Shown here: one piece after another, positions 1,837 to 27,755 of the stretch | Numbering within the stretch: position 1 is the first letter of the stretch | Layout of the letters: every line of letters begins with the position of its first letter | Origin: Synechococcus elongatus PCC 6301 | GTDB lineage: Bacteria; Cyanobacteriota; Cyanobacteriia; Synechococcales; Synechococcaceae | Direction: 5' to 3' | Length of the DNA: 32,000 bases | Assembly: GCF_000010065.1 (NCBI RefSeq) | Contig: NC_006576.1 | Location: forward strand, 360,001 to 392,000 | The notes under the pieces: generated by a model | Databases searched by the model: none | Seen by the model: only the letters and a program-made list of their open reading frames with translations | Told to the model about the DNA's origin: nothing | Program-made: the position numbers and the translations under genes

Positions 1837-2661
1837 ATGACTGCGATCCTTCCCTCCACGGCTGCAACGGTGAATACGGGTTTTCTTCATTTCGATTGTG
1901 TTGGCAAAACCTTCCCAACGCCCCGGGGTCCCTACGTGGCGATCGAGGACGTTAATCTCTCGGTGCAACAGGGTGAATTTATCTGTGTGATCGGCCACTC
2001 TGGCTGTGGCAAATCGACCCTACTCAACTTGGTCTCTGGCTTCTCGCAGCCGACGAGCGGCGGCGTCTATCTAGATGGTCAGCCGATTCAGGAACCGGGG
2101 CCCGATCGCATGGTGGTCTTCCAGAACTACTCGCTCTTGCCCTGGAAGAGTGCCCGCGACAATATCGCACTGGCCGTCAAAGCAGCGCGTCCCCACCTCA
2201 GCACCAGTGAGCAGCGGCAAGTTGTCGATCATCACCTCGAACTGGTGGGACTGACCGAAGCGCAGCACAAGCGGCCCGATCAGCTCTCCGGCGGGATGAA
2301 ACAGCGCGTTGCGATCGCCCGTGCCCTCTCAATTCGGCCTGAAGTGTTGATCCTCGATGAACCCTTCGGTGCCCTTGACGCGATTACAAAGGAAGAGCTG
2401 CAAGAAGAGCTGCTCAATATCTGGGAAGAAGCGCGCCCGACGGTGTTGATGATCACCCACGATATTGATGAGGCCTTGTTCCTCGCCGATCGTGTCGTGA
2501 TGATGACCAATGGCCCCGCAGCCACGATTGGTGAAGTGCTGGAAATTCCCTTCGATCGCCCCCGCGAACGCGAAGCCGTGGTTGAAGACCCTCGCTATGC
2601 CCAACTGCGGACTGAAGCACTCGACTTCCTCTATCGGCGTTTCGCCCACGATGACGACTAA
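1837..2661 (+). CDS. nrtD: Nitrate/nitrite ABC transporter ATP-binding subunit NrtD
   Basis: Walker A GHSGCGKST, signature LSGGMKQRVAIARAL and Walker B VLILDEPF. It shares the peptide EPGPDRMVVFQNYSLLPW with NrtC. ATG at 1837 is preferred over the in-frame TTG at 1831. Confidence 0.9.
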   Translation: MTAILPSTAATVNTGFLHFDCVGKTFPTPRGPYVAIEDVNLSVQQGEFICVIGHSGCGKSTLLNLVSGFSQPTSGGVYLDGQPIQEPGPDRMVVFQNYSLLPWKSARDNIALAVKAARPHLSTSEQRQVVDHHLELVGLTEAQHKRPDQLSGGMKQRVAIARALSIRPEVLILDEPFGALDAITKEELQEELLNIWEEARPTVLMITHDIDEALFLADRVVMMTNGPAATIGEVLEIPFDRPREREAVVEDPRYAQLRTEALDFLYRRFAHDDD

Positions 2662-2858
2662 CCGCCGCCCTGGCTTCCATCTTGCGGTGGAAGCTCCCAG
2701 ATCTCTCTAATTGCAGCGGCGATCGCAGGGCCTGATCAATCCCCACAAGCGGTTGCTTTCCCTCATTGCCTTGTCCCTTCTCCCCGTGCGGGGGGAGGGA
2801 AGCTGCTCTAGTGTTTCATCGCTCCTGATCCCTCGGTAGCGGCGTTGGCGCTGAGGGA

Positions 2859-5048
2859 ATGTTCGATCTCTCGAAGTTTCTGCCGGTCATCACTCCACTC
2901 ATGATCGATACCGCCAAAACCTTGTGCCCTTACTGCGGTGTGGGCTGTGGACTGGAAGCTGTCCCCCCGGCACAACCCGGCCGAGCCACGGTCCGCGATC
3001 GCGAGGGCACACCGATCTGGCAGATTCGGGGCGATCGGCAACATCCCTCCAGTCAGGGAATGGTCTGCGTCAAAGGCGCAACGGTGGCGGAATCTGTCAG
3101 CAAAAGCCGGCTGAAATATCCAATGTTCCGGGCCAGTCTCGACGACCCATTCACGGAAATTAGCTGGGACGAAGCCCTCGACCGCCTCTGCGATCGCATC
3201 CAACAGACGCAGGCCGACTACGGCAAAGACGGTATCTGCTTCTACGGCTCCGGCCAGTTTCAAACTGAAGACTACTACATCGCCCAAAAGCTGGTGAAAG
3301 GTTGCCTCGGCACCAATAATTTCGATACCAACTCGCGACTCTGCATGTCCTCAGCGGTGTCGGCTTACAGTCTTTGCCTGGGTAGCGATGGCCCACCCGC
3401 CTGCTACGAAGATCTTGATCTAGCAGACTGCCTGCTGATCGTGGGCAGCAATACAGCGGAGTGCCACCCGATTCTCTTCAATCGCTATCGCAAGCGCCAT
3501 AAACAGGGTGGCACCAACCTGATCGTCGTCGATCCACGCTGCACACCAACGGCTGAGGTTGCCGATCTCCACCTGGCACTCAAGCCCGGCAGCGATGTCG
3601 CCCTGCTCAACGGCTTGGGCTGGCTGCTCTACCAAATGGGCTATGTCAAAAAGGACTTCATTGCCAACCAGACCGAAGGCTTTGAAGACTGGCTAGCGAT
3701 CATTGAGGACTATCCACCCCAGCGCACAGCAGAACTGACGGGACTGGCAGTCGCTGAGCTGGTGCGAGCCGCCGACTTGATTGCCTCAGCTCAGCGCTGG
3801 CTCTCGCTTTGGTCGATGGGCGTCAATCAGTCGATTCAGGGTACGGCGAAGGCGACCAGCCTGATCAACCTGCACCTCTTGACCCGCCAAATTGGTTTAC
3901 CAGGCTGTGGTCCTTTTTCCTTAACTGGCCGACCAAACGCCATGGGCGGTCGTGAAACGGGTGGGCTCGCGCATCTGTTACCGGGCTATCGCAAGGTCAT
4001 CGATCCCCAGCATCGTGCTGATGTGGAGACGATTTGGGGACTGCCGATGGGCAGTATTTCGCCTCAACCCGGTCGTACCGCTTGGCAGATGATCGAAGGC
4101 CTGGAGCAGGGTGCAGTGGGCTTCCTTTGGGTAGCAGCGACCAATCCAGCAGTCAGTCTGCCGGATGTGAAACGGGCTCAAGCAGCCCTGAAGCGATCGC
4201 CTTTTACCGTTCTCCAAGACGCCTACCATCCCACCGAAACCACAACCTACGCCCACCTCCTTTTACCCGCTGCTCAATGGAGCGAGAAAACGGGCACGAT
4301 GACCAACTCCGAGCGGCGAGTGACGCTTTGCCAAGCCTTTCGCCAGCCCCCCGGGGAAGCCCGAGCCGATTGGCAAATTTTTGCGGAAGTGGGACGGCGC
4401 TTAGGGTTTGCCTTTGACTACACCGATGCGGCTGCCGTCTTTGCAGAGTATGTGCAGGTGACAGCGGGTCGGCTCTGTGACCTCAGCGGCCTGAGTCATG
4501 AGTTGCTGGCGCAGGCGGGACCTCAACAGTGGCCATTTCCAGCGGGAGCAGAACCGACGACCGAAAGTAAGCGCCTCTACACGAAACATCACTTTGCCTA
4601 TGCCGACGGTCGTGCCCGTTTCCAGCCTTTTCATCACTTGGGAGTAGCAGAGCCACCCGACGATCGCTATCCCTTGGTGCTGACAGTGGGACGACTTTAC
4701 GGCCACTGGCATACTCAAACCCGGACCGGCCGCATCGACAAAATCAACAAGCTGCATCCCAGCGCATTTGTCGAAATTCATCCCCGCGATGCCGATCGCT
4801 ACAACATCAGTGAAGGGCAAGCTGTTGTGATTCGATCGCGACGCGGAGAAGGCTGTTTTCCGGCCAAGGTGACAACGGCAATTTCACCAGGAGTATTGTT
4901 TGTGCCGATGCATTGGGGGGCACTATGGGGCGATCGCACGGAGGCTAATGCCCTCACCCATCCGGCAGCTTGTCCCATTTCTGGCGAACCAGAACTCAAA
5001 GCTTGTGCTGTGCAGATTGAAGCAGCGAGTTCAACCTTCACAATCTAA
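2859..5048 (+). CDS. narB: Ferredoxin-dependent assimilatory nitrate reductase (molybdopterin oxidoreductase family)
   Basis: 729 aa. The N-terminal Fe-S cysteine cluster is CPYCGVGCG...C. The body is MopB-type and the C-terminal part is molybdopterin-dinucleotide-binding-like. It sits directly after nrtCD. Confidence 0.9.
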
Positions 5049-19393: not shown

Positions 19394-20248
19394 GTGCTCT
19401 CGCAAATTGCAATCTGCATTTGGGTGGAATCGACGGCAATTTTGCAGGATTGCCAGCGGGCGCTGTCGGCCGATCGCTATCAACTCCAAGTCTGTGAGTC
19501 TGGCGAAATGCTCTTGGAGTATGCCCAAACCCATCGTGACCAAATCGACTGCCTGATTTTAGTGGCAGCCAATCCCAGCTTCAGGGCAGTTGTTCAGCAG
19601 CTCTGCTTTGAGGGAGTGGTGGTACCAGCGATTGTCGTAGGCGATCGCGACAGTGAGGATCCCGATGAACCAGCCAAAGAACAGCTCTATCACAGCGCTG
19701 AACTGCACCTCGGTATCCATCAGCTCGAGCAATTGCCCTACCAAGTTGATGCTGCACTGGCTGAATTTCTGCGCTTAGCCCCGGTCGAGGCCATGGCCGA
19801 CCACATCATGCTGATGGGGGCCAACCACGATCCCGAGCTATCGAGCCAGCAGCGGGACCTCGCTCAGCGACTACAAGAGCGCCTAGGCTATCTCGGGGTC
19901 TACTACAAGCGTGATCCCGATCGCTTTCTGCGCAACCTACCCGCCTACGAAAGCCAAAAGCTGCACCAAGCGATGCAGACTAGCTATCGTGAAATCGTTT
20001 TGAGCTATTTTTCGCCGAATAGCAACCTCAACCAGAGCATTGACAACTTCGTCAACATGGCTTTCTTTGCCGATGTTCCAGTCACCAAAGTGGTAGAAAT
20101 TCACATGGAGCTGATGGACGAGTTTGCCAAGAAGCTCCGCGTAGAGGGACGTTCAGAGGACATTTTGCTGGATTATCGGCTGACTTTAATTGATGTAATT
20201 GCACATCTTTGTGAGATGTATCGACGGTCTATCCCACGAGAAACCTGA
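19394..20248 (+). CDS. kaiA: Circadian clock protein KaiA
   Basis: 284 aa with a GTG start. The sequence matches my recollection of S. elongatus KaiA throughout (MLSQIAICIWVESTAILQDCQRAL...EMYRRSIPRET). Confidence 0.95.
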   Translation: MLSQIAICIWVESTAILQDCQRALSADRYQLQVCESGEMLLEYAQTHRDQIDCLILVAANPSFRAVVQQLCFEGVVVPAIVVGDRDSEDPDEPAKEQLYHSAELHLGIHQLEQLPYQVDAALAEFLRLAPVEAMADHIMLMGANHDPELSSQQRDLAQRLQERLGYLGVYYKRDPDRFLRNLPAYESQKLHQAMQTSYREIVLSYFSPNSNLNQSIDNFVNMAFFADVPVTKVVEIHMELMDEFAKKLRVEGRSEDILLDYRLTLIDVIAHLCEMYRRSIPRET

Positions 20249-20337: not shown

Positions 20338-20646
20338 ATGAGCCCTCGTAAAACCTACATTCTCAAGCTCTACGTCGCCGGCAATACTCCAAACTCAGTC
20401 CGTGCCCTCAAAACGCTCAAGAACATTCTCGAAGTTGAATTTCAAGGTGTTTATGCTCTAAAGGTGATCGATGTTCTCAAAAATCCTCAGTTGGCAGAAG
20501 AGGATAAAATCCTAGCGACGCCAACCCTCGCCAAGGTTCTACCACTGCCTGTCCGACGGATTATTGGTGATTTATCCGACCGTGAGAAAGTTTTGATTGG
20601 CCTTGATTTACTCTACGGCGAACTTCAAGATTCCGACGACTTCTAA
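20338..20646 (+). CDS. kaiB: Circadian clock protein KaiB
   Basis: 102 aa, [32 protein letters not shown]..., thioredoxin-like KaiB family. Confidence 0.95.
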
Positions 20647-20695: not shown

Positions 20696-22255
20696 ATGAC
20701 TTCCGCTGAGATGACTAGCCCTAATAATAATTCTGAGCACCAAGCCATCGCTAAGATGCGCACGATGATTGAAGGCTTTGATGATATTAGTCATGGCGGT
20801 CTTCCAATCGGGCGATCGACCCTCGTTAGTGGTACTTCAGGAACCGGCAAGACCCTTTTTTCTATTCAATTTCTCTATAACGGTATTATCGAGTTTGATG
20901 AGCCTGGGGTTTTCGTTACTTTCGAAGAAACCCCGCAAGATATCATTAAAAACGCCCGTAGTTTTGGCTGGGATTTAGCCAAGCTGGTCGATGAGGGCAA
21001 ACTATTTATTCTTGATGCTTCACCCGATCCAGAAGGTCAAGAGGTTGTTGGCGGCTTCGATCTCTCTGCTCTGATTGAGCGGATTAATTATGCAATTCAA
21101 AAGTATCGAGCGCGGCGGGTTTCAATTGACTCGGTCACGTCCGTTTTCCAGCAATATGATGCCTCTTCTGTGGTTCGCCGCGAACTCTTTCGGTTGGTAG
21201 CTCGCCTAAAACAAATTGGGGCAACTACGGTCATGACCACCGAGCGTATCGAGGAATATGGCCCGATCGCTCGTTACGGTGTTGAGGAATTTGTCTCCGA
21301 TAACGTCGTGATTCTCCGCAACGTTTTGGAAGGGGAGCGCCGTCGCCGCACCCTCGAAATCCTCAAGCTACGTGGCACCAGCCACATGAAAGGGGAATAT
21401 CCGTTCACGATTACGGATCATGGCATCAATATCTTCCCGCTCGGGGCAATGCGCCTTACGCAGCGATCGTCGAACGTGCGTGTTTCATCTGGTGTCGTCC
21501 GACTCGATGAAATGTGTGGTGGGGGCTTCTTTAAGGACTCAATCATTCTGGCAACTGGCGCTACAGGCACTGGTAAAACTCTGTTAGTTAGCCGTTTCGT
21601 TGAGAATGCTTGTGCTAACAAAGAGCGGGCGATTCTGTTCGCTTATGAAGAGTCACGAGCTCAGCTGCTCCGCAATGCCTATTCATGGGGAATGGACTTT
21701 GAGGAGATGGAGCGCCAAAACCTCCTCAAAATTGTTTGCGCCTATCCTGAATCTGCAGGTCTTGAAGACCATTTGCAGATTATTAAGTCGGAGATCAATG
21801 ACTTTAAGCCAGCTCGTATTGCAATCGACTCCCTCTCTGCTTTGGCGCGGGGCGTTAGCAACAATGCCTTCCGCCAATTTGTAATTGGTGTCACTGGCTA
21901 CGCGAAACAAGAAGAAATCACGGGACTATTCACAAATACCAGTGATCAATTTATGGGAGCGCATTCGATTACTGACTCCCATATCTCAACAATTACGGAT
22001 ACGATTATCTTGCTCCAATACGTCGAGATTCGTGGCGAAATGTCCCGCGCCATTAACGTCTTCAAGATGCGCGGATCTTGGCATGACAAAGCAATCCGCG
22101 AATTCATGATCAGCGACAAAGGGCCGGACATCAAGGATTCTTTCCGGAACTTTGAGCGGATTATTTCAGGTTCGCCAACACGGATTACCGTCGATGAGAA
22201 AAGCGAACTCTCGCGAATTGTGCGCGGCGTTCAAGAAAAAGGGCCGGAGAGCTAG
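20696..22255 (+). CDS. kaiC: Circadian clock protein KaiC (duplicated RecA/DnaB-like ATPase)
   Basis: 519 aa. Two Walker A motifs: GTSGTGKT (aa 46-53, nt 20831-20854) and GATGTGKT (aa 288-295, nt 21557-21580). Phosphosites S431/T432 lie in HISTITD (nt 21986-21991). Confidence 0.97.
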   Translation: MTSAEMTSPNNNSEHQAIAKMRTMIEGFDDISHGGLPIGRSTLVSGTSGTGKTLFSIQFLYNGIIEFDEPGVFVTFEETPQDIIKNARSFGWDLAKLVDEGKLFILDASPDPEGQEVVGGFDLSALIERINYAIQKYRARRVSIDSVTSVFQQYDASSVVRRELFRLVARLKQIGATTVMTTERIEEYGPIARYGVEEFVSDNVVILRNVLEGERRRRTLEILKLRGTSHMKGEYPFTITDHGINIFPLGAMRLTQRSSNVRVSSGVVRLDEMCGGGFFKDSIILATGATGTGKTLLVSRFVENACANKERAILFAYEESRAQLLRNAYSWGMDFEEMERQNLLKIVCAYPESAGLEDHLQIIKSEINDFKPARIAIDSLSALARGVSNNAFRQFVIGVTGYAKQEEITGLFTNTSDQFMGAHSITDSHISTITDTIILLQYVEIRGEMSRAINVFKMRGSWHDKAIREFMISDKGPDIKDSFRNFERIISGSPTRITVDEKSELSRIVRGVQEKGPES

Positions 22256-23918: not shown

Positions 23919-24335
23919 TTAGGAAAGGAGAGGGTTAGCGAGTTCCCAGTCCACCACCCGCAAACCCGTGATGCGAACAAACTCTCGCGTGTTGTAGGTG
24001 ACGAGGGTGGTATCGAAAGCACGAGCCGTGGCTGCAATCAGGAGATCATTTGGGCCAATGGGTTTGCCTTGGGCAGCGGGGTCAGCGCGAATCAGTCCGG
24101 CTTCTTCGGCACAGCGATCGGTGAAGGGGAGACTTTGCAGAGGAGCAAAGAAGCGATCGAGGAGCTGTAGGTTCGCTTCGACGTTTTGACTACGGCGTGC
24201 CCCGTAGAGCAGTTCAGATTTGACGATGCTGCAGAGGGCAATGTCTGCGGGCGATTGTTGCCGAAAGTGCTGCAGTAACTGGGGATGGCGGCGATTAAGG
24301 AGCTGGATGCAAGCGTTGGTGTCGAGCAGAAACAT
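23919..24335 (-). CDS. vapC: PIN-domain toxin, VapC family
   Basis: N-terminus MFLLDTNACIQLL and C-terminus DLLIAATA...LVTYNTREF are typical of PIN/VapC. It begins 3 nt after the upstream antitoxin gene. Confidence 0.88.
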   Translation of the reverse strand: MFLLDTNACIQLLNRRHPQLLQHFRQQSPADIALCSIVKSELLYGARRSQNVEANLQLLDRFFAPLQSLPFTDRCAEEAGLIRADPAAQGKPIGPNDLLIAATARAFDTTLVTYNTREFVRITGLRVVDWELANPLLS

Positions 24336-24338
24336 TGT

Positions 24339-24563
24339 CTATTGCCAGTCCAGGCGCTCTTCCCAGGCATCAGATGTGGGGCGTTCCGGTGGGTCGCCTT
24401 GCCACTGTCTAAAGATTTCGAAGTAGCCCTCAGGCCAGTCGTGGTTGAGGTCGCGCTTGACGAGGAGCGCCAGATATTTAGAGAGAGACAGCTGAGCGGA
24501 TTCTGCCTTGGCTTGTAGTCGCTTGGCGATGTCTTCGGAGACATAGCAATGGAGCTGAGGCAT
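24339..24563 (-). CDS. Ribbon-helix-helix (CopG-like) antitoxin partner of VapC
   Basis: 74 aa. The beta-strand LHCYVSEDI is followed by two helices (AKRLQAKAES / LSKYLALLVKRDL). It sits immediately upstream of vapC. Confidence 0.75.
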   Translation of the reverse strand: MPQLHCYVSEDIAKRLQAKAESAQLSLSKYLALLVKRDLNHDWPEGYFEIFRQWQGDPPERPTSDAWEERLDWQ

Positions 24564-24631
24564 AAGGAATAGGTTGTTTATATGTAGAGTATGTGTCTCT
24601 CAGACTAGCACTGCTAGGGTGGGAACAATAG

Positions 24632-24715
24632 GATAGCGATCGCCTCTTACCTAAGCTGATATCTGATGAAATTCGGATCAAAGATGCCGAGAAAGTAGCT
24701 GAGGAGGTGTTGTAG
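24632..24715 (+). pseudogene. Remnant resembling the C-terminus of a type I R-M specificity subunit (HsdS)
   Basis: In-frame translation gives DSDRLLPKLISDEIRIKDAEKVAEEVL*, bounded upstream by a TAG at 24629. It resembles the conserved ...LLPKLISGEIRV.DAE... HsdS tail. Its TAG overlaps the GTG start of the next gene (TAGTG). Confidence 0.55.
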
Positions 24716-24975
24716 TGCCAGAGATTAGCCGCTTCTTTGGAATCATTATCACTATGTACTACAACGACCACGCGCCGCCCCACTTCCATGTTCGCTATGG
24801 TCAACAGAAAGCCATCATTTCTATTGATACTCTTGCCGTTTTAGAAGGAAGCCTTAAACCCCGTACCCTTGGGCTCGTGATTGAATGGGCAGCTCAGCAC
24901 CAAGCCGAACTAAGGAATGACTGGCAGCTTGCCCGCCAAAACGCTCCCCTAGAAGCGATCGAACCACTGGAGTAA
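24715..24975 (+). CDS. DUF4160-family protein (cassette 1)
   Basis: 86 aa, MPEISRFFGIIITMYYNDHAPPHFHVRYG... is the DUF4160 signature. GTG start with the SD GAGGAGG 7 nt upstream. Confidence 0.8.
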   Translation: MPEISRFFGIIITMYYNDHAPPHFHVRYGQQKAIISIDTLAVLEGSLKPRTLGLVIEWAAQHQAELRNDWQLARQNAPLEAIEPLE

Positions 24976-24979
24976 GACC

Positions 24980-25324
24980 ATGCTCAAAGATGTCATTGCT
25001 GTAAAAGCGATCGAAGATTATCAACTTCAGATCACCTTTGAAGACCATAAAGAAGGAATCGTTAATCTAGCCGAAATCATCGAGTTTAGCGGCATCTTCG
25101 AGCCGCTCAAGAATCCTACTTACTTTGCTACTGTCCAAGTTGATCCAGATCTCGGGACTCTTTGCTGGGACAACGGTGCAGATATTGATCCGGTGGTTCT
25201 GTATGCCAAAGTCACGAACCCAGAAACATCCCTATCTGAGATCCGTGATCGGCTTTTACCTCAGCTAATGTCTAGCGGAAGTGAGCGTAAGGATGCTGAG
25301 GAAGCAACTGGGGAGAGCTTGTAG
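24980..25324 (+). CDS. DUF2442-family protein (cassette 1) with a C-terminal extension that reads through an HsdS-tail-like remnant
   Basis: The core (aa 1 to about 80: ..YQLQITFEDHKEGIVNL...LCWDNGADIDPVVLY) matches DUF2442. The tail EIRDRLLPQLMSSGSERKDAEEATGESL is homologous to the remnant at 24632-24715. Confidence 0.78.
   Translation: MLKDVIAVKAIEDYQLQITFEDHKEGIVNLAEIIEFSGIFEPLKNPTYFATVQVDPDLGTLCWDNGADIDPVVLYAKVTNPETSLSEIRDRLLPQLMSSGSERKDAEEATGESL
25238..25324 (+). pseudogene. Second HsdS-C-terminus-like remnant, fused in frame to the cassette-1 DUF2442 ORF
   Basis: The 25-aa stretch DRLLPQLMSSGSERKDAEEATGESL* is identical at 14/25 positions to DRLLPKLISDEIRIKDAEKVAEEVL*. The 11-mer TTGTAGTGCCA is identical at both junctions (24710-24720 and 25319-25329). 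Confidence 0.5.
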
Positions 25325-25572
25325 TGCCAACTGTTCTTTTTTTGCGAGGTTGGCGGTTCCATTTCTATTCCAATGAAGGAACGGAACCAATCCTCATTCA
25401 CGCTCAAAGAGGAGAGGCTGAATGTAAATACTGGCTTAATCCAGAAATCTATGACATCCGAGAAGCCTATGCTTACAATATGAGTAAACGAGATACAAGA
25501 GAGGTACGCAAAATTATCCTGCAAAACTTTGATGAAATCGTAGAAGCTTGGACTAACTATTTCGGAGAGTAA
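25324..25572 (+). CDS. DUF4160-family protein (cassette 2)
   Basis: 82 aa, MPTVLFLRGWRFHFYSNEGTEPILIHAQRGEAECKYWL... is DUF4160-like. Its GTG start shares a G with the preceding TAG. Confidence 0.75.
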   Translation: MPTVLFLRGWRFHFYSNEGTEPILIHAQRGEAECKYWLNPEIYDIREAYAYNMSKRDTREVRKIILQNFDEIVEAWTNYFGE

Positions 25573-25574
25573 AT

Positions 25575-25835
25575 ATGAATCCACATCATATCGTTCAAAA
25601 CCTTAGCTTTGACCAAGAAAACATGATTCTCAGTGTTGATGGGTCAACGTACTCTATCCCAATTAGCCAAGCTTCAAAACGGCTCTCTCAAGCAACAGAA
25701 GCAGAACGCAAGCTTTATCAAATTTCTCCCTCTGGCTATGGCATTCATTGGTTAGCAATTGACGAAGACCTATCCATTGATGGCTTGATTCGCTTGGCAA
25801 ATAGTCTGCCAGTCCAGAATGCCTCCAGATTCTAA
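25575..25835 (+). CDS. DUF2442-family protein (cassette 2)
   Basis: 86 aa with the DUF2442 hallmark ...ISPSGYGIHWLAIDEDLSIDGLI. It starts 2 nt after the DUF4160 stop. Confidence 0.75.
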   Translation: MNPHHIVQNLSFDQENMILSVDGSTYSIPISQASKRLSQATEAERKLYQISPSGYGIHWLAIDEDLSIDGLIRLANSLPVQNASRF

Positions 25836-25926
25836 CCATGCATGGCTTTGAGGAAATGCCCCGTGGGACTGGCCTCAGACAAAGCCCCTGAGTTAGCGAT
25901 CGCCAGTTTTGGCTAAGTGCTATTGT

Positions 25927-25946
25927 TGTACAACAAGCTGTACAAC
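25927..25946. promoter_or_regulatory. Putative YefM/YefM-YoeB operator: two TGTACA cores 12 bp apart
   Basis: TGTACAAC lies at 25927-25934 and again at 25939-25946, ending 10 nt upstream of the yefM ATG (25957). The E. coli yefM-yoeB operator also uses two TGTACA-core palindromes with 12-bp centre spacing. Confidence 0.6.
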
Positions 25947-25956
25947 TCCTCGGCTC

Positions 25957-26211
25957 ATGAAAGTTGTTTCCTTCAGTGACGCCAGAAAAAATCTCAAGAC
26001 TGTCTTGGATGAAGTCGTCAACGACGCTGACTACACGATCATTACTCGCCGCAATGCCGAGGAGGTCGTGGTCATGTCCCTCGACTCCTTCAATAGCCTG
26101 ATCGAAACCTTCCACCTGCTCAAATCCCCTGCCAATGCTGCTCACCTACAACGCTCGATCGCTCAGTACCAGCAAGGTCAAACAGTCGAGCGAAATCTAT
26201 TAGATGCGTAA
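25957..26211 (+). CDS. yefM: YefM/Phd-family antitoxin
   Basis: MKVVSFSDARKNLKTVLDEVVNDADYTIITRRNAEEVVVMSLDSFNSLIETFHLLKSP.N is classic YefM. The internal ATG at 25957 is preferred to the ORF-track start at 25909. Confidence 0.9.
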   Translation: MKVVSFSDARKNLKTVLDEVVNDADYTIITRRNAEEVVVMSLDSFNSLIETFHLLKSPANAAHLQRSIAQYQQGQTVERNLLDA

Positions 26212-26467
26212 GCTGGCTTGGACAAACGAGGCTTGGGAAGATTACCTGTATTGGCAAGGGCAGGACAAGAAGACCTTAAATCGCATCAACAAGCTCATTA
26301 CCGAAACCTTGCGATCGCCCTTTGAGGGGATTGGTAAGCCAGAAGCGCTCAGGGAGAACCTGACTGGGTTTTGGTCACGCCGCATTGACGACACCAATCG
26401 CTTAGTTTACGCAGTAGCAGATGACTACCTGACCATTATTTCCTGTCGCTACCACTACAGCGATTAA
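26204..26467 (+). CDS. yoeB: YoeB-family mRNA interferase toxin
   Basis: MRKLAWTNEAWEDYLYWQGQDKKTLNRINKLI...FWSRRIDDTNRLVY...CRYHY matches YoeB. It overlaps yefM by 8 nt (ATGCGTAA). Confidence 0.9.
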   Translation: MRKLAWTNEAWEDYLYWQGQDKKTLNRINKLITETLRSPFEGIGKPEALRENLTGFWSRRIDDTNRLVYAVADDYLTIISCRYHYSD

Positions 26468-26593
26468 TACCTCCTCAGTCTTTTCAACAATATGGGTACT
26501 GGCTGAGTAATCACAGTTGTGCCAAGGGCAGCAAGTCTGAACAGCAATGTGATGTCTGTCAGCACAAGTAAGGTATGAAATTTATAGACAGAC

Positions 26594-26827
26594 TCATTGA
26601 TATTTTTGGCTGAGATAGTCGCTGTAGTCTGCCTGTAATTCCTGATCGCTAACGGTTGTTCCTAAGCGTTTGGCAATTCCCCGCAATCCAATCAGCGTTC
26701 CTGGCGGAATCACTGACTGGGGTTGGGGGCTTTGTTGCTGCAGAAACTCCGCAAAGTGCAAAACCTCCGTCACCTTTTCTTCAGGAAGCGTTTGGATCAG
26801 TTGGTAGAGTTTCTCGGCAGCAGTCAT
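26594..26827 (-). CDS. DUF2281-like antitoxin-type protein, apparently orphan
   Basis: From the internal Met the sequence reads MTAAEKLYQLIQTLPEEKVTEVLHFAEFLQQQ..., a DUF2281-like N-terminus. No intact partner ORF lies downstream. Confidence 0.55.
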   Translation of the reverse strand: MTAAEKLYQLIQTLPEEKVTEVLHFAEFLQQQSPQPQSVIPPGTLIGLRGIAKRLGTTVSDQELQADYSDYLSQKYQ

Positions 26828-26865
26828 GACTGAAGCCGTTGGATCTGTCTTTATATCGTGGCGAA

Positions 26866-27069
26866 TCATGGCTGGGTCTGGGGGATCCAAGTGATGCGCT
26901 GGAAGCGGGCAGGGTTGCCAGCGGTATAACGCACCGTGTTTTGAATGTTGCGATGGCCTAAGTAGTCCTGAATATCGCGAGTCGGTAGACCCTGTTCAGC
27001 CAAGGCATAGCCGCAGGACTGGCGGAACATGTGCGGGTGAACCTGAATTTTGAAAGCTTTAGCGATCGC
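26866..27069 (-). pseudogene. 3' fragment of a FimB/FimE-like tyrosine recombinase (phage integrase family)
   Basis: My manual reverse-strand translation gives AIAKAFKIQVHPHMFRQSCGYALAEQGLPTRDIQDYLGHRNIQNTVRYTAGNPARFQRITWIPQTQP*. This contains box II (HxxR ... LGH ... catalytic Y). An in-frame TAA at 27070-27072 cuts off everything N-terminal. Confidence 0.8.
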
Positions 27070-27102
27070 TTAGACTGGTTGGCCTCTAGTTGTTTGCTTG
27101 CC

Positions 27103-27345
27103 ATGCAAACTGTTGGCGCGTTTGAAGCCAAGACCCATCTCTCCAGCCTGCTCGACTCCGTCTGTCAGGGGGAGCAGATCGTGATTACCCGCCACGGTTG
27201 CCCGATCGCCCGTTTGGTGCCAGCAGAAGGTCCTGATCAGTCTGCGGTCCAAGCCGCGATCGCCCGTCTTCGGCAGCTCAGCCAAGGTCAAACCCTCAAC
27301 GGAATTACGGTGCAGGAACTCCGTGATACTGGGCGGCGGGCATGA
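27103..27345 (+). CDS. Phd/YefM-type antitoxin paired with VapC
   Basis: MQTVGAFEAKTHLSSLLDSVCQGEQIVITRHGCPIARLVP is a prevent-host-death family N-terminus. Its stop overlaps the vapC start (ATGA). Confidence 0.82.
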   Translation: MQTVGAFEAKTHLSSLLDSVCQGEQIVITRHGCPIARLVPAEGPDQSAVQAAIARLRQLSQGQTLNGITVQELRDTGRRA

Positions 27346-27755
27346 GCTTTGTGTTGGATGTCTCACTGGCTTGTGCTTGGTGTTTTGCGGATGAGGCAAC
27401 ACCGGAATCTTGGGCTTTATTGGAGCAGTTGCAACAATCTCCAGCAGTTGTCCCTGCACTTTGGCTCTGGGAAGTTGGGCATGTCTTGGTGCAAGCAGAG
27501 CGCCGGCAAAGGATTAGCGCCGCTGCGAGTCGTGAGTTTTTATCGCTGCTAGAGATGTTGCCGATTGAGGTAGAACCCGCTGCTGTCGGTACCGTTTGGC
27601 ATGACACATTGGCGATCGCTTGCAGTCAACAGCTGACTGCTTATGACGCAGCTTATTTGGAGCTGGCGATGCGGCGGGGATTCGCTCTGGCAACTTGCGA
27701 TCGCGCCTTGATCAGTGCTGCGGAAGCCGTGGGAGTTACGTTACTGCCGACCTAA
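27342..27755 (+). CDS. vapC: PIN-domain toxin, VapC family (second copy)
   Basis: N-terminus MSFVLDVSLACAWCFADE and C-terminus TAYDAAYLELAMRRGFALATCD are typical of the PIN family paired with Phd-type antitoxins. Confidence 0.85.
   Translation: MSFVLDVSLACAWCFADEATPESWALLEQLQQSPAVVPALWLWEVGHVLVQAERRQRISAAASREFLSLLEMLPIEVEPAAVGTVWHDTLAIACSQQLTAYDAAYLELAMRRGFALATCDRALISAAEAVGVTLLPT

Follow-up and report, generated by a model that had tools for sequence, protein, structure and literature searches.

The window analysed here is a 32,000-nucleotide stretch of DNA from Synechococcus elongatus PCC 6301. Its positions 24632-25835 are occupied by two DUF4160/DUF2442 gene pairs, each with a copy of the HsdS C-terminal tail upstream. 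The block adjoins the kaiABC clock genes, has further toxin-antitoxin (TA) modules and an integrase fragment as neighbours, and lies in a region (24400-26800) whose GC content is 40-49%, versus 55-60% in the flanks. A preliminary description of this DNA had located the two pairs and their TAG/GTG overlaps; re-reading the sequence bore out both the coordinates and the sequences. For brevity, the putative products are called toxin and antitoxin, numbered by cassette. The features of the block are as follows.

24632..24715, + strand: HsdS C-terminal tail remnant 1, 27 codons (DSDRLLPKLISDEIRIKDAEKVAEEVL) plus a TAG stop at 24713-24715
24701..24717, + strand: translation-initiation joint 1, a GAGGAGG Shine-Dalgarno sequence at 24701-24707 and then the TAGTG stop/start overlap at 24713-24717
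24715..24975, + strand: first DUF4160 gene (PF13711, GTG start), DhiT-like putative toxin 1, 86 aa
24980-25324, + strand: first DUF2442 gene including its tail, 114 aa, the last ~31 codons being remnant 2
24980..25228, + strand: core of the first DUF2442 gene, DhiA-like putative antitoxin 1, with PF10387 at residues 5-78
25229..25324, + strand: HsdS tail remnant 2, in frame on the first DUF2442 gene, ending …SLSEIRDRLLPQLMSSGSERKDAEEATGESL and then TAG at 25322-25324
25310..25326, + strand: translation-initiation joint 2, a weakened Shine-Dalgarno sequence (GGGGAGAG) and the TAGTG overlap at 25322-25326
25324..25572, + strand: second DUF4160 gene (by Pfam; GTG start), DhiT-like putative toxin 2, 82 aa
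25575..25835, + strand: second DUF2442 gene (by Pfam), DhiA-like putative antitoxin 2, 86 aa, with no tail copy after it

The tail copies comprise 25-31 codons, and at both of them the TAG stop overlaps the GTG start of a DUF4160 gene; the GTG of the first DUF4160 gene shares its G with the TAG of remnant 1. Within each pair, the two genes lie on the same strand and are separated by gaps of 4 nt (24975 to 24980) and 2 nt (25572 to 25575).

Two putative toxin-antitoxin pairs

According to Pfam, the first gene of each pair encodes a single-domain PF13711 (DUF4160) protein, with scores of 83.6 bits (E = 1.2e-23) for the first and 57.0 bits (E = 2.3e-15) for the second, against a cut-off of 23. 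The partner genes match PF10387 (DUF2442) with 58.7 bits (E = 6.5e-16) and 48.5 bits (E = 1e-12), the cut-off being 23.9. The preliminary description took such pairs to be functionally uncharacterized; in fact, they constitute the DhiTA type II TA family, which has been tested in Dickeya and in Thermus. In Dickeya dadantii, the toxicity of DhiT is neutralized by DhiA, and together they form a complex that represses the promoter of the pair (PMC8198452). In Thermus, a DUF4160 + DUF2442 pair stabilizes plasmids: a plasmid without the second ORF (DUF2442) gave no transformants, and one without the first (DUF4160) did give them (PMC12724237). The four genes, which in S. elongatus are poorly annotated and neighbour a clock locus, can now be assigned to this experimentally tested family. 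Toxicity, neutralization and any role in defence in S. elongatus would follow by analogy with the tested homologues, which are distant in sequence.

The block resembles the DhiTA locus of D. dadantii 3937 in having both Pfam domains, the toxin-first order and a spacing of a few bases (PMC8198452). The Dickeya locus differs in being a stand-alone bicistron with its own autoregulated promoter, whereas the block is a tandem of two divergent cassettes, each with a start that overlaps the stop of an hsdS tail; one of its putative antitoxins bears an hsdS tail as a C-terminal extension. With the persistence-enhancing module of Thermus thermophilus it has the domain pair and the gene order in common (PMC12724237). 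For the Thermus module there is genetic evidence that the second ORF neutralizes the first and that the pair stabilizes its replicon. That module resides on a plasmid, with no restriction-modification (R-M) context; the block, in contrast, is chromosomal and sits in a TA island with R-M scars.

Toxin 1 has 7568 homologues, the closest at 88-90% identity. Its N-terminal residues are invariant among these relatives, which supports the GTG start, and its HxH motif is intact (PPHFHV). In toxin 2, leucine (codon 25393-25395) replaces the nearly invariant first histidine of that motif. The exact sequence of toxin 2 is that of syc0340_d of S. elongatus PCC 6301, and the histidine is present in the common S. 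elongatus allele and in all relatives; the PCC 6301-specific change provides a natural allele pair for testing the conserved motif. An AlphaFold2 model of toxin 1 reached a pLDDT of 96.5. Comparison of this model with the PDB by Foldseek returned no match better than E 0.5, and sequence searches of the PDB also came back empty; with no PDB match for the fold, no enzymatic mechanism can be proposed. A published study found no structural homologue either (PMC12065111).

Purifying selection acts on all four genes. Relative to their counterparts in L094, one of the related loci considered below, dN/dS was 0.07 for toxin 1, 0.07 for the core of antitoxin 1, 0.05 for toxin 2 and 0.10 for antitoxin 2 (76% amino-acid identity to its L094 counterpart).

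The HsdS tails and their joints

Is the resemblance of the two remnants to HsdS genuine? We scored them with a profile built from the tails of seven full-length HsdS proteins, all of them Methylase_S by Pfam. Remnant 1 attained 45.9 bits (shuffle maximum 10.0) and remnant 2 attained 25.5 bits (shuffle maximum 7.3); the iE of remnant 1 was 2e-13 among 21,891 six-frame segments. Via the profile, both match the conserved helix (…RD.LLPKLMSGEIRV.DAE…) at the C-terminal end of HsdS. The likeness extends to the DNA, in which remnant 1 is 73-76% identical to the tails of L094, L082 and L001. These scores bear out the HsdS resemblance claimed in the preliminary description, and we regard both tails as genuine hsdS remnants. 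They are fragments and not hsdS genes: the two PF01420 target-recognition domains are absent.

Some searches were less telling. Neither peptide matches PF01420 (Methylase_S) in Pfam at E up to 10; this check, which had been proposed at the outset, was uninformative, as the model does not score the short tail. Bare-peptide searches of Pfam and of PDB sequences gave nothing useful because the peptides are too short, and the only PDB match was a designed helical bundle. A protein search with a 42-aa genuine tail retrieved nothing but short ORFs, several annotated as type I S subunit; three of their loci were inspected, mostly frameshifted or fragmentary R-M loci, and added little. The missing PF01420 match and the helical-bundle match might be taken to mean that the resemblance is coincidental, that is, a generic amphipathic helix or a low-complexity match. 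The profile scores, the DNA identity and synteny, with full-length hsdS in exactly the same position at syntenic loci, refute that interpretation, and we attach practically no probability to it.

The two remnants differ in their coding status. The frame of remnant 1 opens only at 24632, right after an in-frame TAG (24629-24631), and its only in-frame start codon lies at the extreme end; because there is no usable start codon, remnant 1 is untranslatable alone. Remnant 2 is fused in frame to the first DUF2442 gene, as originally described, and the fusion is conserved in relatives. Its middle part is degenerate. The dN/dS of remnant 2 against tail c of L094 is 0.28, versus 0.05-0.10 for the genes, a measure that on 25-codon tails is too noisy to decide protein-level selection on the fused tail.

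How far does the repeat between the two units extend? The junction 11-mer TTGTAGTGCCA, reported earlier at 24710 and 25319, indeed occurs exactly twice in the window, at those positions (shuffle mean 0.01; two occurrences in 0 of 100 shuffles). The 25-aa peptides of the remnants are identical at 13 of 25 positions on recounting, rather than at the 14 first given, and in the shuffle control that had been suggested none of 200,000 shuffles reached either this identity or the BLOSUM62 score. At the DNA level, 55 of 84 bases agree between the two tails, and no other place in the window matches tail 1 at more than 39 of 84. The rest of the two units, beyond the tails and the junction, can hardly be aligned at the nucleotide level. 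Therefore, the repeat is the tail, not the whole 600-bp unit.

The preliminary description had instead viewed the cassettes as copies of one duplicating unit, an hsdS tail plus DUF4160 plus DUF2442 that was tandemly duplicated here and whose copies then diverged. The common layout of the two units and the identical 11-mer at the joint are what such an event would leave. However, the toxins align at only 20% identity and the coding DNA is essentially unalignable, as against 65% identity for the tails, and each toxin has many closer relatives in a large family of its own. Moreover, the same tandem of divergent cassettes is present in L094-L096 at 79% nucleotide identity, and therefore predates the S. 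elongatus PCC 6301 genome. Local tandem duplication was rejected on alignment and synteny, and we deem it exceedingly improbable.

The tails end in a recurrent arrangement. The GAGGAGG of joint 1 is encoded by the tail's Glu-Glu-Val codons, and every intact hsdS tail lying ahead of a DUF4160 or PIN gene (L001, L056, L081, L082, L086, L094) terminates in a GAGGAGGTG..TAGTG/TAATG joint. The GAGGAGGTG…TAGTG sequence is kept wherever an overlapping gene follows and has decayed where none does (tail c of L082, tail c of L089). Among about 69 HsdS tails sampled independently, 41 share bases with the following start codon, and GAGG lies just upstream in most. As its last codons encode both GAGGAGG and the overlapping stop, the tail probably acts as a portable translation-initiation and coupling element: its end (…Glu-Glu-Val-x-stop) provides a Shine-Dalgarno sequence and a stop that overlaps the GTG or ATG of the next gene. 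Remnant 1, an untranslatable scar, would still supply a Shine-Dalgarno sequence and start to toxin 1. Remnant 2 would be translated as the C-terminus of antitoxin 1 and would couple this translation to that of toxin 2. Joint 2, whose L094 orthologue reads GAGGAGGTGATGTAGTG, is predicted to be a genuine site of termination-reinitiation coupling from the first DUF2442 gene to the second DUF4160 gene. A consensus scan for promoters and terminators upstream of 24632 gave no promoter candidate; any position assigned to the promoter of the block would be presumptive.

Related loci in type I restriction-modification operons

Over 1201 bp, positions 24639-25838 of the window align colinearly with L094, at a nucleotide identity of 79.1%. 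At one edge the homology begins where the tail begins; at the other it ends 3 bp past the last stop codon. In the metagenome contigs L094-L096, the matching stretch is the hsdS-hsdR spacer of a type I R-M operon. The order in L094 is hsdS-tail / 74aa-tail / first DUF4160-first DUF2442::tail / second DUF4160-second DUF2442 / hsdR, with hsdR directly after the second DUF2442 gene; that in L082 is hsdS-tail / PIN-74aa-tail / DUF4160-DUF2442::tail … hsdR. Tail b of both loci is a separate ORF of 38 codons. All three genes, hsdM, hsdS and hsdR, are present in L081, L082, L086, L088 and L094.

In the type I R-M operons L001, L056, L081, L086 and L087/L088, an intact hsdS ends in the same tail and its stop codon overlaps the start of the DUF4160 gene by 1 nt, so that the overlap with the hsdS stop predicted in the preliminary description holds among the closest relatives. 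In L082 and L094, the start of the DUF4160 gene overlaps the stop of a short extra tail that lies 3' of hsdS. The 113-114 aa DUF2442::tail fusion is conserved in L001, L082/L083, L089-L091 and L094, and the fused tail is intact in the L094, L082 and L001 orthologues of the first DUF2442 gene. The TA cassettes behind hsdS in L082, L001, L181/L182 and L094-L096 each end in or precede another tail copy. Relatives of the block sit between hsdS and hsdR with PIN, MNT/HepT, RhuM, DUF1828 and AAA_15/DUF4276 genes; the spacer is a general landing place for accessory genes.

The general tie between DUF4160/DUF2442 and type I R-M that had been proposed proved to be limited to a sub-lineage: only 4 of 80 more distant relatives (65-80% identity) have type I R-M genes within 4 kb, and DUF4160 follows one to three of ~70 sampled hsdS tails, frequencies that are rough because the related loci are few, mostly metagenomic and picked as best matches. 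In the window, a phmmer search (E<1e-3) with HsdM, HsdS and HsdR of L081, L082 and L056 against six-frame segments of at least 50 aa from all 32 kb found nothing.

Origin of the block and role of the tails

The hsdS leftovers on unrelated TA pairs imply that the pairs were lifted out of an R-M operon. In all likelihood, the 1.2-kb block represents two different DhiTA-family cassettes from a cyanobacterial hsdS-hsdR spacer, now free of R-M genes in a horizontally acquired TA island, with the tail as both coupling element and recombination joint. The low GC content of the region and the neighbouring TA modules and integrase fragment support a foreign origin. We infer the direction of this transfer. 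In the parental state, accessory cassettes would be stacked behind hsdS, each ending in or followed by the last ~25-31 hsdS codons. Such an origin accounts for the odd peptide remnants beside the S. elongatus TA genes.

The repeated, conserved tail could serve as a joint for insertion, reordering and loss of cassettes, most likely by homologous recombination. The upstream partner of toxin 2 varies: its tail is carried by antitoxin 1 in the window and in L094, and in L181/L182, in which the tail-TAGTG-DUF4160 joint is kept, by a different protein of 64 aa. This swap of partners, together with the tail-cargo-tail arrangement of L116 and L085 around other cargo, suggests shuffling of cassettes at the tail. 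The lack of a 3' tail behind cassette 2 shows that some cassettes depart from a simple cassette-plus-tail unit.

Alternatively, the tail copies might be sites of a site-specific system, comparable to integron attC sites or to the att sites of a small integrative element. Integron cassettes form promoter-less arrays with a repeated boundary, and TA pairs are commonly carried by integrons; some integrative elements duplicate the 3' end of the gene they enter, which leaves that gene intact. The present cassettes are likewise promoter-less and arrayed, a ~90-bp repeat marks each boundary, the target 3' end is duplicated, and a C-terminal fragment of a tyrosine recombinase lies at 26866-27030. This fragment, however, is truncated, 1 kb from the block and on the opposite strand, and no integrase gene accompanies the R-M-embedded arrays L081, L082, L086 and L094. 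Tail DNA (four tail regions, both strands) folds no better than shuffled controls (z -0.42 to +1.04), and the attC reading was rejected because these controls revealed no attC-like hairpin. The present arrays differ from integrons in both respects, hairpin and adjoining dedicated integrase. Since the repeat is plain coding sequence belonging to the adjacent gene, homologous recombination offers the simpler account, and it is the one we infer; a site-specific system appears very unlikely.

A further question is whether the tail on the antitoxin works as a protein module. It might dock the antitoxin to HsdM/HsdS, with the toxin freed when R-M is disabled, as a PrrC-like backup; in S. elongatus it would be decaying because the R-M partner is gone. 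The embedding of PrrC in EcoprrI is a precedent (PMC12707154). Consistent with a module, the tail on antitoxin 1 of L094 differs from the hsdS tail there at 7 of 75 bases, with six codons changed synonymously and none non-synonymously, although a firm dN/dS estimate would need more than 25 codons. In-frame tail fusions are found on two unrelated upstream proteins, and tail 2 of the window, which lacks an R-M partner, is degenerate in the middle. On the other hand, most DUF2442 partners of close DUF4160 relatives are tail-less proteins of 83-97 aa, even in R-M operons (L081, L086, L087), and tail b of L082 and L094 is unfused. In addition, tail ends decay exactly where no downstream gene uses the joint, which fits an RNA-level role. 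We therefore consider a docking module unlikely. The same low probability applies to a broader version, in which the tail tethers the TA pair to the HsdM/HsdS methyltransferase as a PrrC-like restriction guard, with the toxin firing once the R-M enzyme is inhibited or lost, and is also a recombinase-independent, integron-like joint by which type I R-M operons gather and swap guard cassettes. If that were true, S. elongatus would retain an R-M guard in disarmed, relict form.

TA modules inside type I R-M operons are already known. Excerpts of earlier papers describe PIN-like toxins coupled to HsdM/HsdS/HsdR (PMC5499597), TgvAB between hsdS and hsdR in Vibrio cholerae VPI-2 (PMC12409362) and PrrC in EcoprrI (PMC12707154). 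Like the relatives of the block, these systems are accessory genes in type I R-M operons; as far as the excerpts go, they belong to families other than DUF4160/DUF2442 and are described without duplicated hsdS or hsdM tail boundaries bearing a Shine-Dalgarno sequence and an overlapping start. The block itself, unlike them, has lost its R-M genes. The cassette architecture bounded by duplicated tails appears to be new, and homologous exchange at the tails is a suggested route by which defence operons are remodelled. The tail profile, combined with the stop/start overlap, offers a simple signature for finding such cargo and its orphaned descendants. The related loci illustrate how TA and defence cargo builds up in cyanobacterial type I R-M operons: cassettes follow one another behind hsdS, and each has as its boundary a duplicated tail with a ribosome-binding site and an overlapping start. 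The same holds behind hsdM, where duplicate HsdM tails flank the cassettes that separate hsdM from hsdS.

Layout of the block and identity of the remnants

The 1.2-kb block at 24632-25835 had been read, in a preliminary description, as two tandem units of about 600 bp, each made of an hsdS 3'-end remnant, a DUF4160 gene (here, toxin 1 or 2) and a DUF2442 gene (antitoxin 1 or 2). Direct reading of the sequence, with Pfam for the domains (E-values of 1e-12 to 1e-23 for the four), placed all of its features where they had been described.

Features of the block (window positions)
24632-24712, + strand: remnant 1, a 27-codon open stretch; TAG at 24713-24715
24715-24975, + strand: DUF4160#1 (Pfam), 86 aa; its GTG start begins with the G of the remnant 1 TAG
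24980-25324, + strand: DUF2442#1 (Pfam), 114 aa; begins four bases past DUF4160#1
25324-25572, + strand: DUF4160#2 (Pfam), GTG start
25575-25835, + strand: DUF2442#2 (Pfam)

The last ~31 codons of DUF2442#1 (remnant 2) are similar to remnant 1, and the TAG of this gene (25322-25324) overlaps the GTG of DUF4160#2. The 11-mer TTGTAGTGCCA is confined to the two stop/start joints (expected count 0.01), and the two 84-nt tails are identical at 55 positions, the next-best match anywhere in the window reaching 39. The 25-residue tail peptides share 13 identities rather than the 14 first counted; the similarity is nonetheless above chance, as none of 200,000 shuffles equaled it. Outside the tails, the two cassettes gave no meaningful alignment, and the toxins are only 20% identical. 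These comparisons argue that the repeated element is the tail with its joint, not a 600-bp unit. Public annotations of DUF4160#1 differ among S. elongatus records (73, 77 or 86 aa); family conservation supports the 86-aa GTG start.

Are the remnants truly derived from hsdS? Because direct searches with the bare peptides were uninformative, relatives of the DUF4160 genes were examined instead. Among 80 genome loci whose proteins are 64-80% identical to toxin 1, two carried a full-length ORF ending on the DUF4160 start codon: L001 (452 aa, tail …RDRLLPKLMSGEIRVKEAEEIVEEVR, TAGTG overlap) and L056 (417 aa, tail …RDLLLPKLMSGEIRLQEAEKIVEEIV, TAATG overlap). Both ORFs are Methylase_S proteins by Pfam. 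A contig look-up showed that most of the closest toxin 1 relatives (81-90% identity) immediately follow hsdS within a type I R-M operon; the order at locus L081 is hsdM-RhuM-VapBC-MNT/HepT-hsdS-DUF4160-DUF2442-DUF1828-hsdR, and L086 and L087/L088 have similar layouts. L082/L083, whose tail array is taken up below, belong to this set as well. We also scored the remnants against a profile built solely from seven genuine HsdS tails, with 2000 shuffles as controls. Remnant 1 scored 45.9 bits (best shuffle, 10.0) and remnant 2 scored 25.5 bits (best shuffle, 7.3); the DNA of remnant 1 is 73-76% identical to genuine hsdS tails. Taken together, these data indicate that both remnants are real pieces of hsdS, as had been supposed.

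Origin of the tandem and its surroundings

The protein nearest to toxin 2 (85% identity) led us to loci L094-L096, in which the order is hsdS end, 74-aa gene, 38-codon tail copy, DUF4160#1, DUF2442#1 fused in frame to a tail, DUF4160#2, DUF2442#2 and hsdR. There, the 114-aa DUF2442#1 is fused to a perfect tail copy, and DUF4160#2 starts on its stop codon. Window positions 24639-25838 are colinear with L094 631-1830, at 79.1% identity across 1201 bp; homology is limited to the stretch from the tail to 3 bp past the last stop codon. Between the window and L094 lineages, dN/dS is 0.05-0.10 for all four genes. The colinearity contradicts the local duplication of one unit that had been proposed as the source of the two cassettes, as does the low identity of the toxins. 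The tandem would thus be older than its arrival in S. elongatus.

The cyanobacterial HIP1 palindrome GCGATCGC lies at 24636-24643, precisely where, on the left, homology with R-M-embedded arrays starts, and is encoded by Arg-Asp-Arg codons of several hsdS tails (L094, L001); its position may be a coincidence in a HIP1-rich genome. The hsdR after the L094 array (1842-4453) looks split: an N-terminal HsdR-like frame runs from ~1842, and the gene called from 2153 has no HSDR_N. A frameshift, an error of assembly or decay to a pseudogene could account for this.

No hsdM, hsdS or hsdR was found in the window. The block lies in a toxin-antitoxin (TA) island (23919-27755) that adjoins kaiABC, and GC content is 40-49% across 24400-26800 vs. 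55-60% in the flanks.

Features around the block (window positions)
19394-20248: KaiA
20338-20646: KaiB
20696-22255: KaiC
23919-24335, - strand: PIN toxin gene, TA island
24339-24563, - strand: small gene beside the PIN gene, presumed antitoxin by position only
25957-26467: YefM/YoeB, TA island
26594-26890, - strand: DUF2281 gene, TA island
26866-27030, - strand: tyrosine recombinase C-terminal fragment, 54 aa
27031-27755: Phd/PIN pair, TA island

Given the missing R-M genes, the low GC content and the TA neighbors, we conclude that the block is an orphaned, horizontally acquired fragment.

The DUF4160/DUF2442 family

The pair had been presented as uncharacterized, but the family has been tested in two organisms. 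In Dickeya dadantii 3937 it is named dhiTA: overexpressed DhiT is growth-inhibitory in both Dickeya and E. coli, co-expression of DhiA prevents this, and the DhiT-DhiA complex represses the promoter (PMC8198452). On Thermus thermophilus plasmids, the pair raises plasmid persistence; a plasmid without the second ORF (DUF2442) gave no transformants, while one without the first (DUF4160) did (PMC12724237). The locus consists of two cassettes of this TA family that derive from an array between hsdS and hsdR and are now orphaned.

DUF4160 is also a predicted effector domain in Menshen NsnC proteins (PMC12065111). An AlphaFold2 model of toxin 1 (pLDDT 96.5; five strands, then two helices) had no fold match in the PDB, and the same report likewise found none for DUF4160. 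One DUF4160 gene, either of the two, is among the heavy-metal/produced-water-induced genes in an S. elongatus transcriptome (PMC12727749). The sequence of DUF4160#2 matches syc0340_d of PCC 6301 exactly. In both, codon 24 (25393-25395) is Leu (CTC); the allele common in S. elongatus (~340 contigs), like every relative, has at this position the first His of a nearly invariant HxH motif. The Leu may be a strain-specific, toxin-inactivating substitution. Database names vary: DUF2442#1 is a [quoted passage not shown] in UniRef, and relatives of DUF4160#2 are "Mug157" at JGI.

The tail as a proposed joint between cassettes

Among the relatives compared, all hsdS tails located before a DUF4160 or PIN gene have the ending …GAGGAGGTG-xxx-TAG/TAA-TG. 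The Glu-Glu-Val codons there make up a Shine-Dalgarno sequence, and 7-8 nt further on comes the start codon, which overlaps the stop. We also examined an independent metagenome sample, made up of 80 loci that carry such tails (~69 evaluable). In 41 of them the tail overlapped the start of the following gene, usually as ATGA or GTGA, and GAGG lay just upstream in most. The downstream genes encoded HsdR (16) or mixed accessory functions, including integrases, DUF4268, AAA_15/21, reverse transcriptases, Abi, Fic and one DUF4160. The 3' joint is kept where an overlapping gene comes next (L094 tail c, L082 tail b, both window tails) and lost where none does (L082 tail c, L089 tail c), which suggests that the tail serves as a portable element for translation initiation and coupling. 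Remnant 1 cannot be translated, because it has no start codon; all it can provide is the GTG and the Shine-Dalgarno sequence. Remnant 2 is translated as the C-terminus of antitoxin 1 and would couple toxin 2 to it by termination-reinitiation.

Other loci have comparable arrangements. At L082 the tail is present in three direct copies (hsdS-tail, PIN-74aa-tail, DUF4160-DUF2442::tail), and L094 likewise has three. At L181/L182, DUF4160#2 starts on the TAG of a tail fused to a different, unrelated 64-aa protein, and the DUF2442#1 core is fused to the end of the 74-aa protein known from L082 and L094 (chimeric small proteins at L182 149-529 and 1082-1276 and L181 867-1055). A third, orphan DUF2442 follows cassette 2 there. 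Tails flank a 275-aa, weakly DUF4145-like cargo at L116 26-1263; at L085 4323-5219, in a non-R-M chromosomal context, an orphan tail and a second tail flank a 160-aa cargo with no Pfam match. L089-L091 represent another orphan without R-M genes, with a 6-codon 5' remnant (…VEKVI*, TAGTG) and a DUF2442::tail fusion. At L086-L088, cassettes (MNT/HepT, DUF433/PIN, VapBC) lie between hsdM and hsdS, followed by short HsdM C-terminal tail copies. These are short ORFs ending …ESARLEKAIRENLSALGYTL* (L086 706-822 and 1907-2035; L087 919-1008; L088 just upstream of hsdS at 3521), a duplicated-tail pattern on the hsdM side too. On the contig of protein P0128, outside any R-M operon, a 67-aa hsdS tail fragment (897-1100) overlaps the start of a RhuM-family gene (1097-2164) by 4 nt. 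RhuM lies inside the R-M operon in L081, and the RhuM-family gene on the P0128 contig is likely another piece of cargo that was orphaned and still bears a tail scar.

Most simply, the conserved ends of these genes would be joints of shared homology through which cassettes are gained, relocated and lost. Integron-like site-specific recombination at the tails is unlikely, as tail DNA folds no better than chance and no integrase accompanies the arrays. It might also be asked whether the antitoxin-fused tail ties the TA pair to the R-M enzyme as a guard. The hsdS and fused tails of L094, which differ by six synonymous and no non-synonymous codons, would fit such a role; however, many antitoxin partners are tail-less, and this, with the pattern of tail decay, makes a guard unlikely.

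How general is the association? In 5 of 7 lineages with at least 80% identity to toxin 1, the gene lies behind hsdS or a tail copy, whereas of the 80 loci in the 64-80% range, only 4 lie within 4 kb of type I R-M genes. The proposed tie to type I R-M thus holds among close relatives and is sub-lineage-specific. Other toxin 2 relatives (L097, L098-L100) are outside R-M operons. Three reports already document TA modules and other defense genes embedded in type I R-M operons (PMC5499597, PMC12409362, PMC12707154); both the DhiTA family and the general TA/R-M association are already known. What appears to be a new variant is the architecture, in which duplicated tails bound the cassettes and serve as portable coupling elements; it merits a systematic survey.
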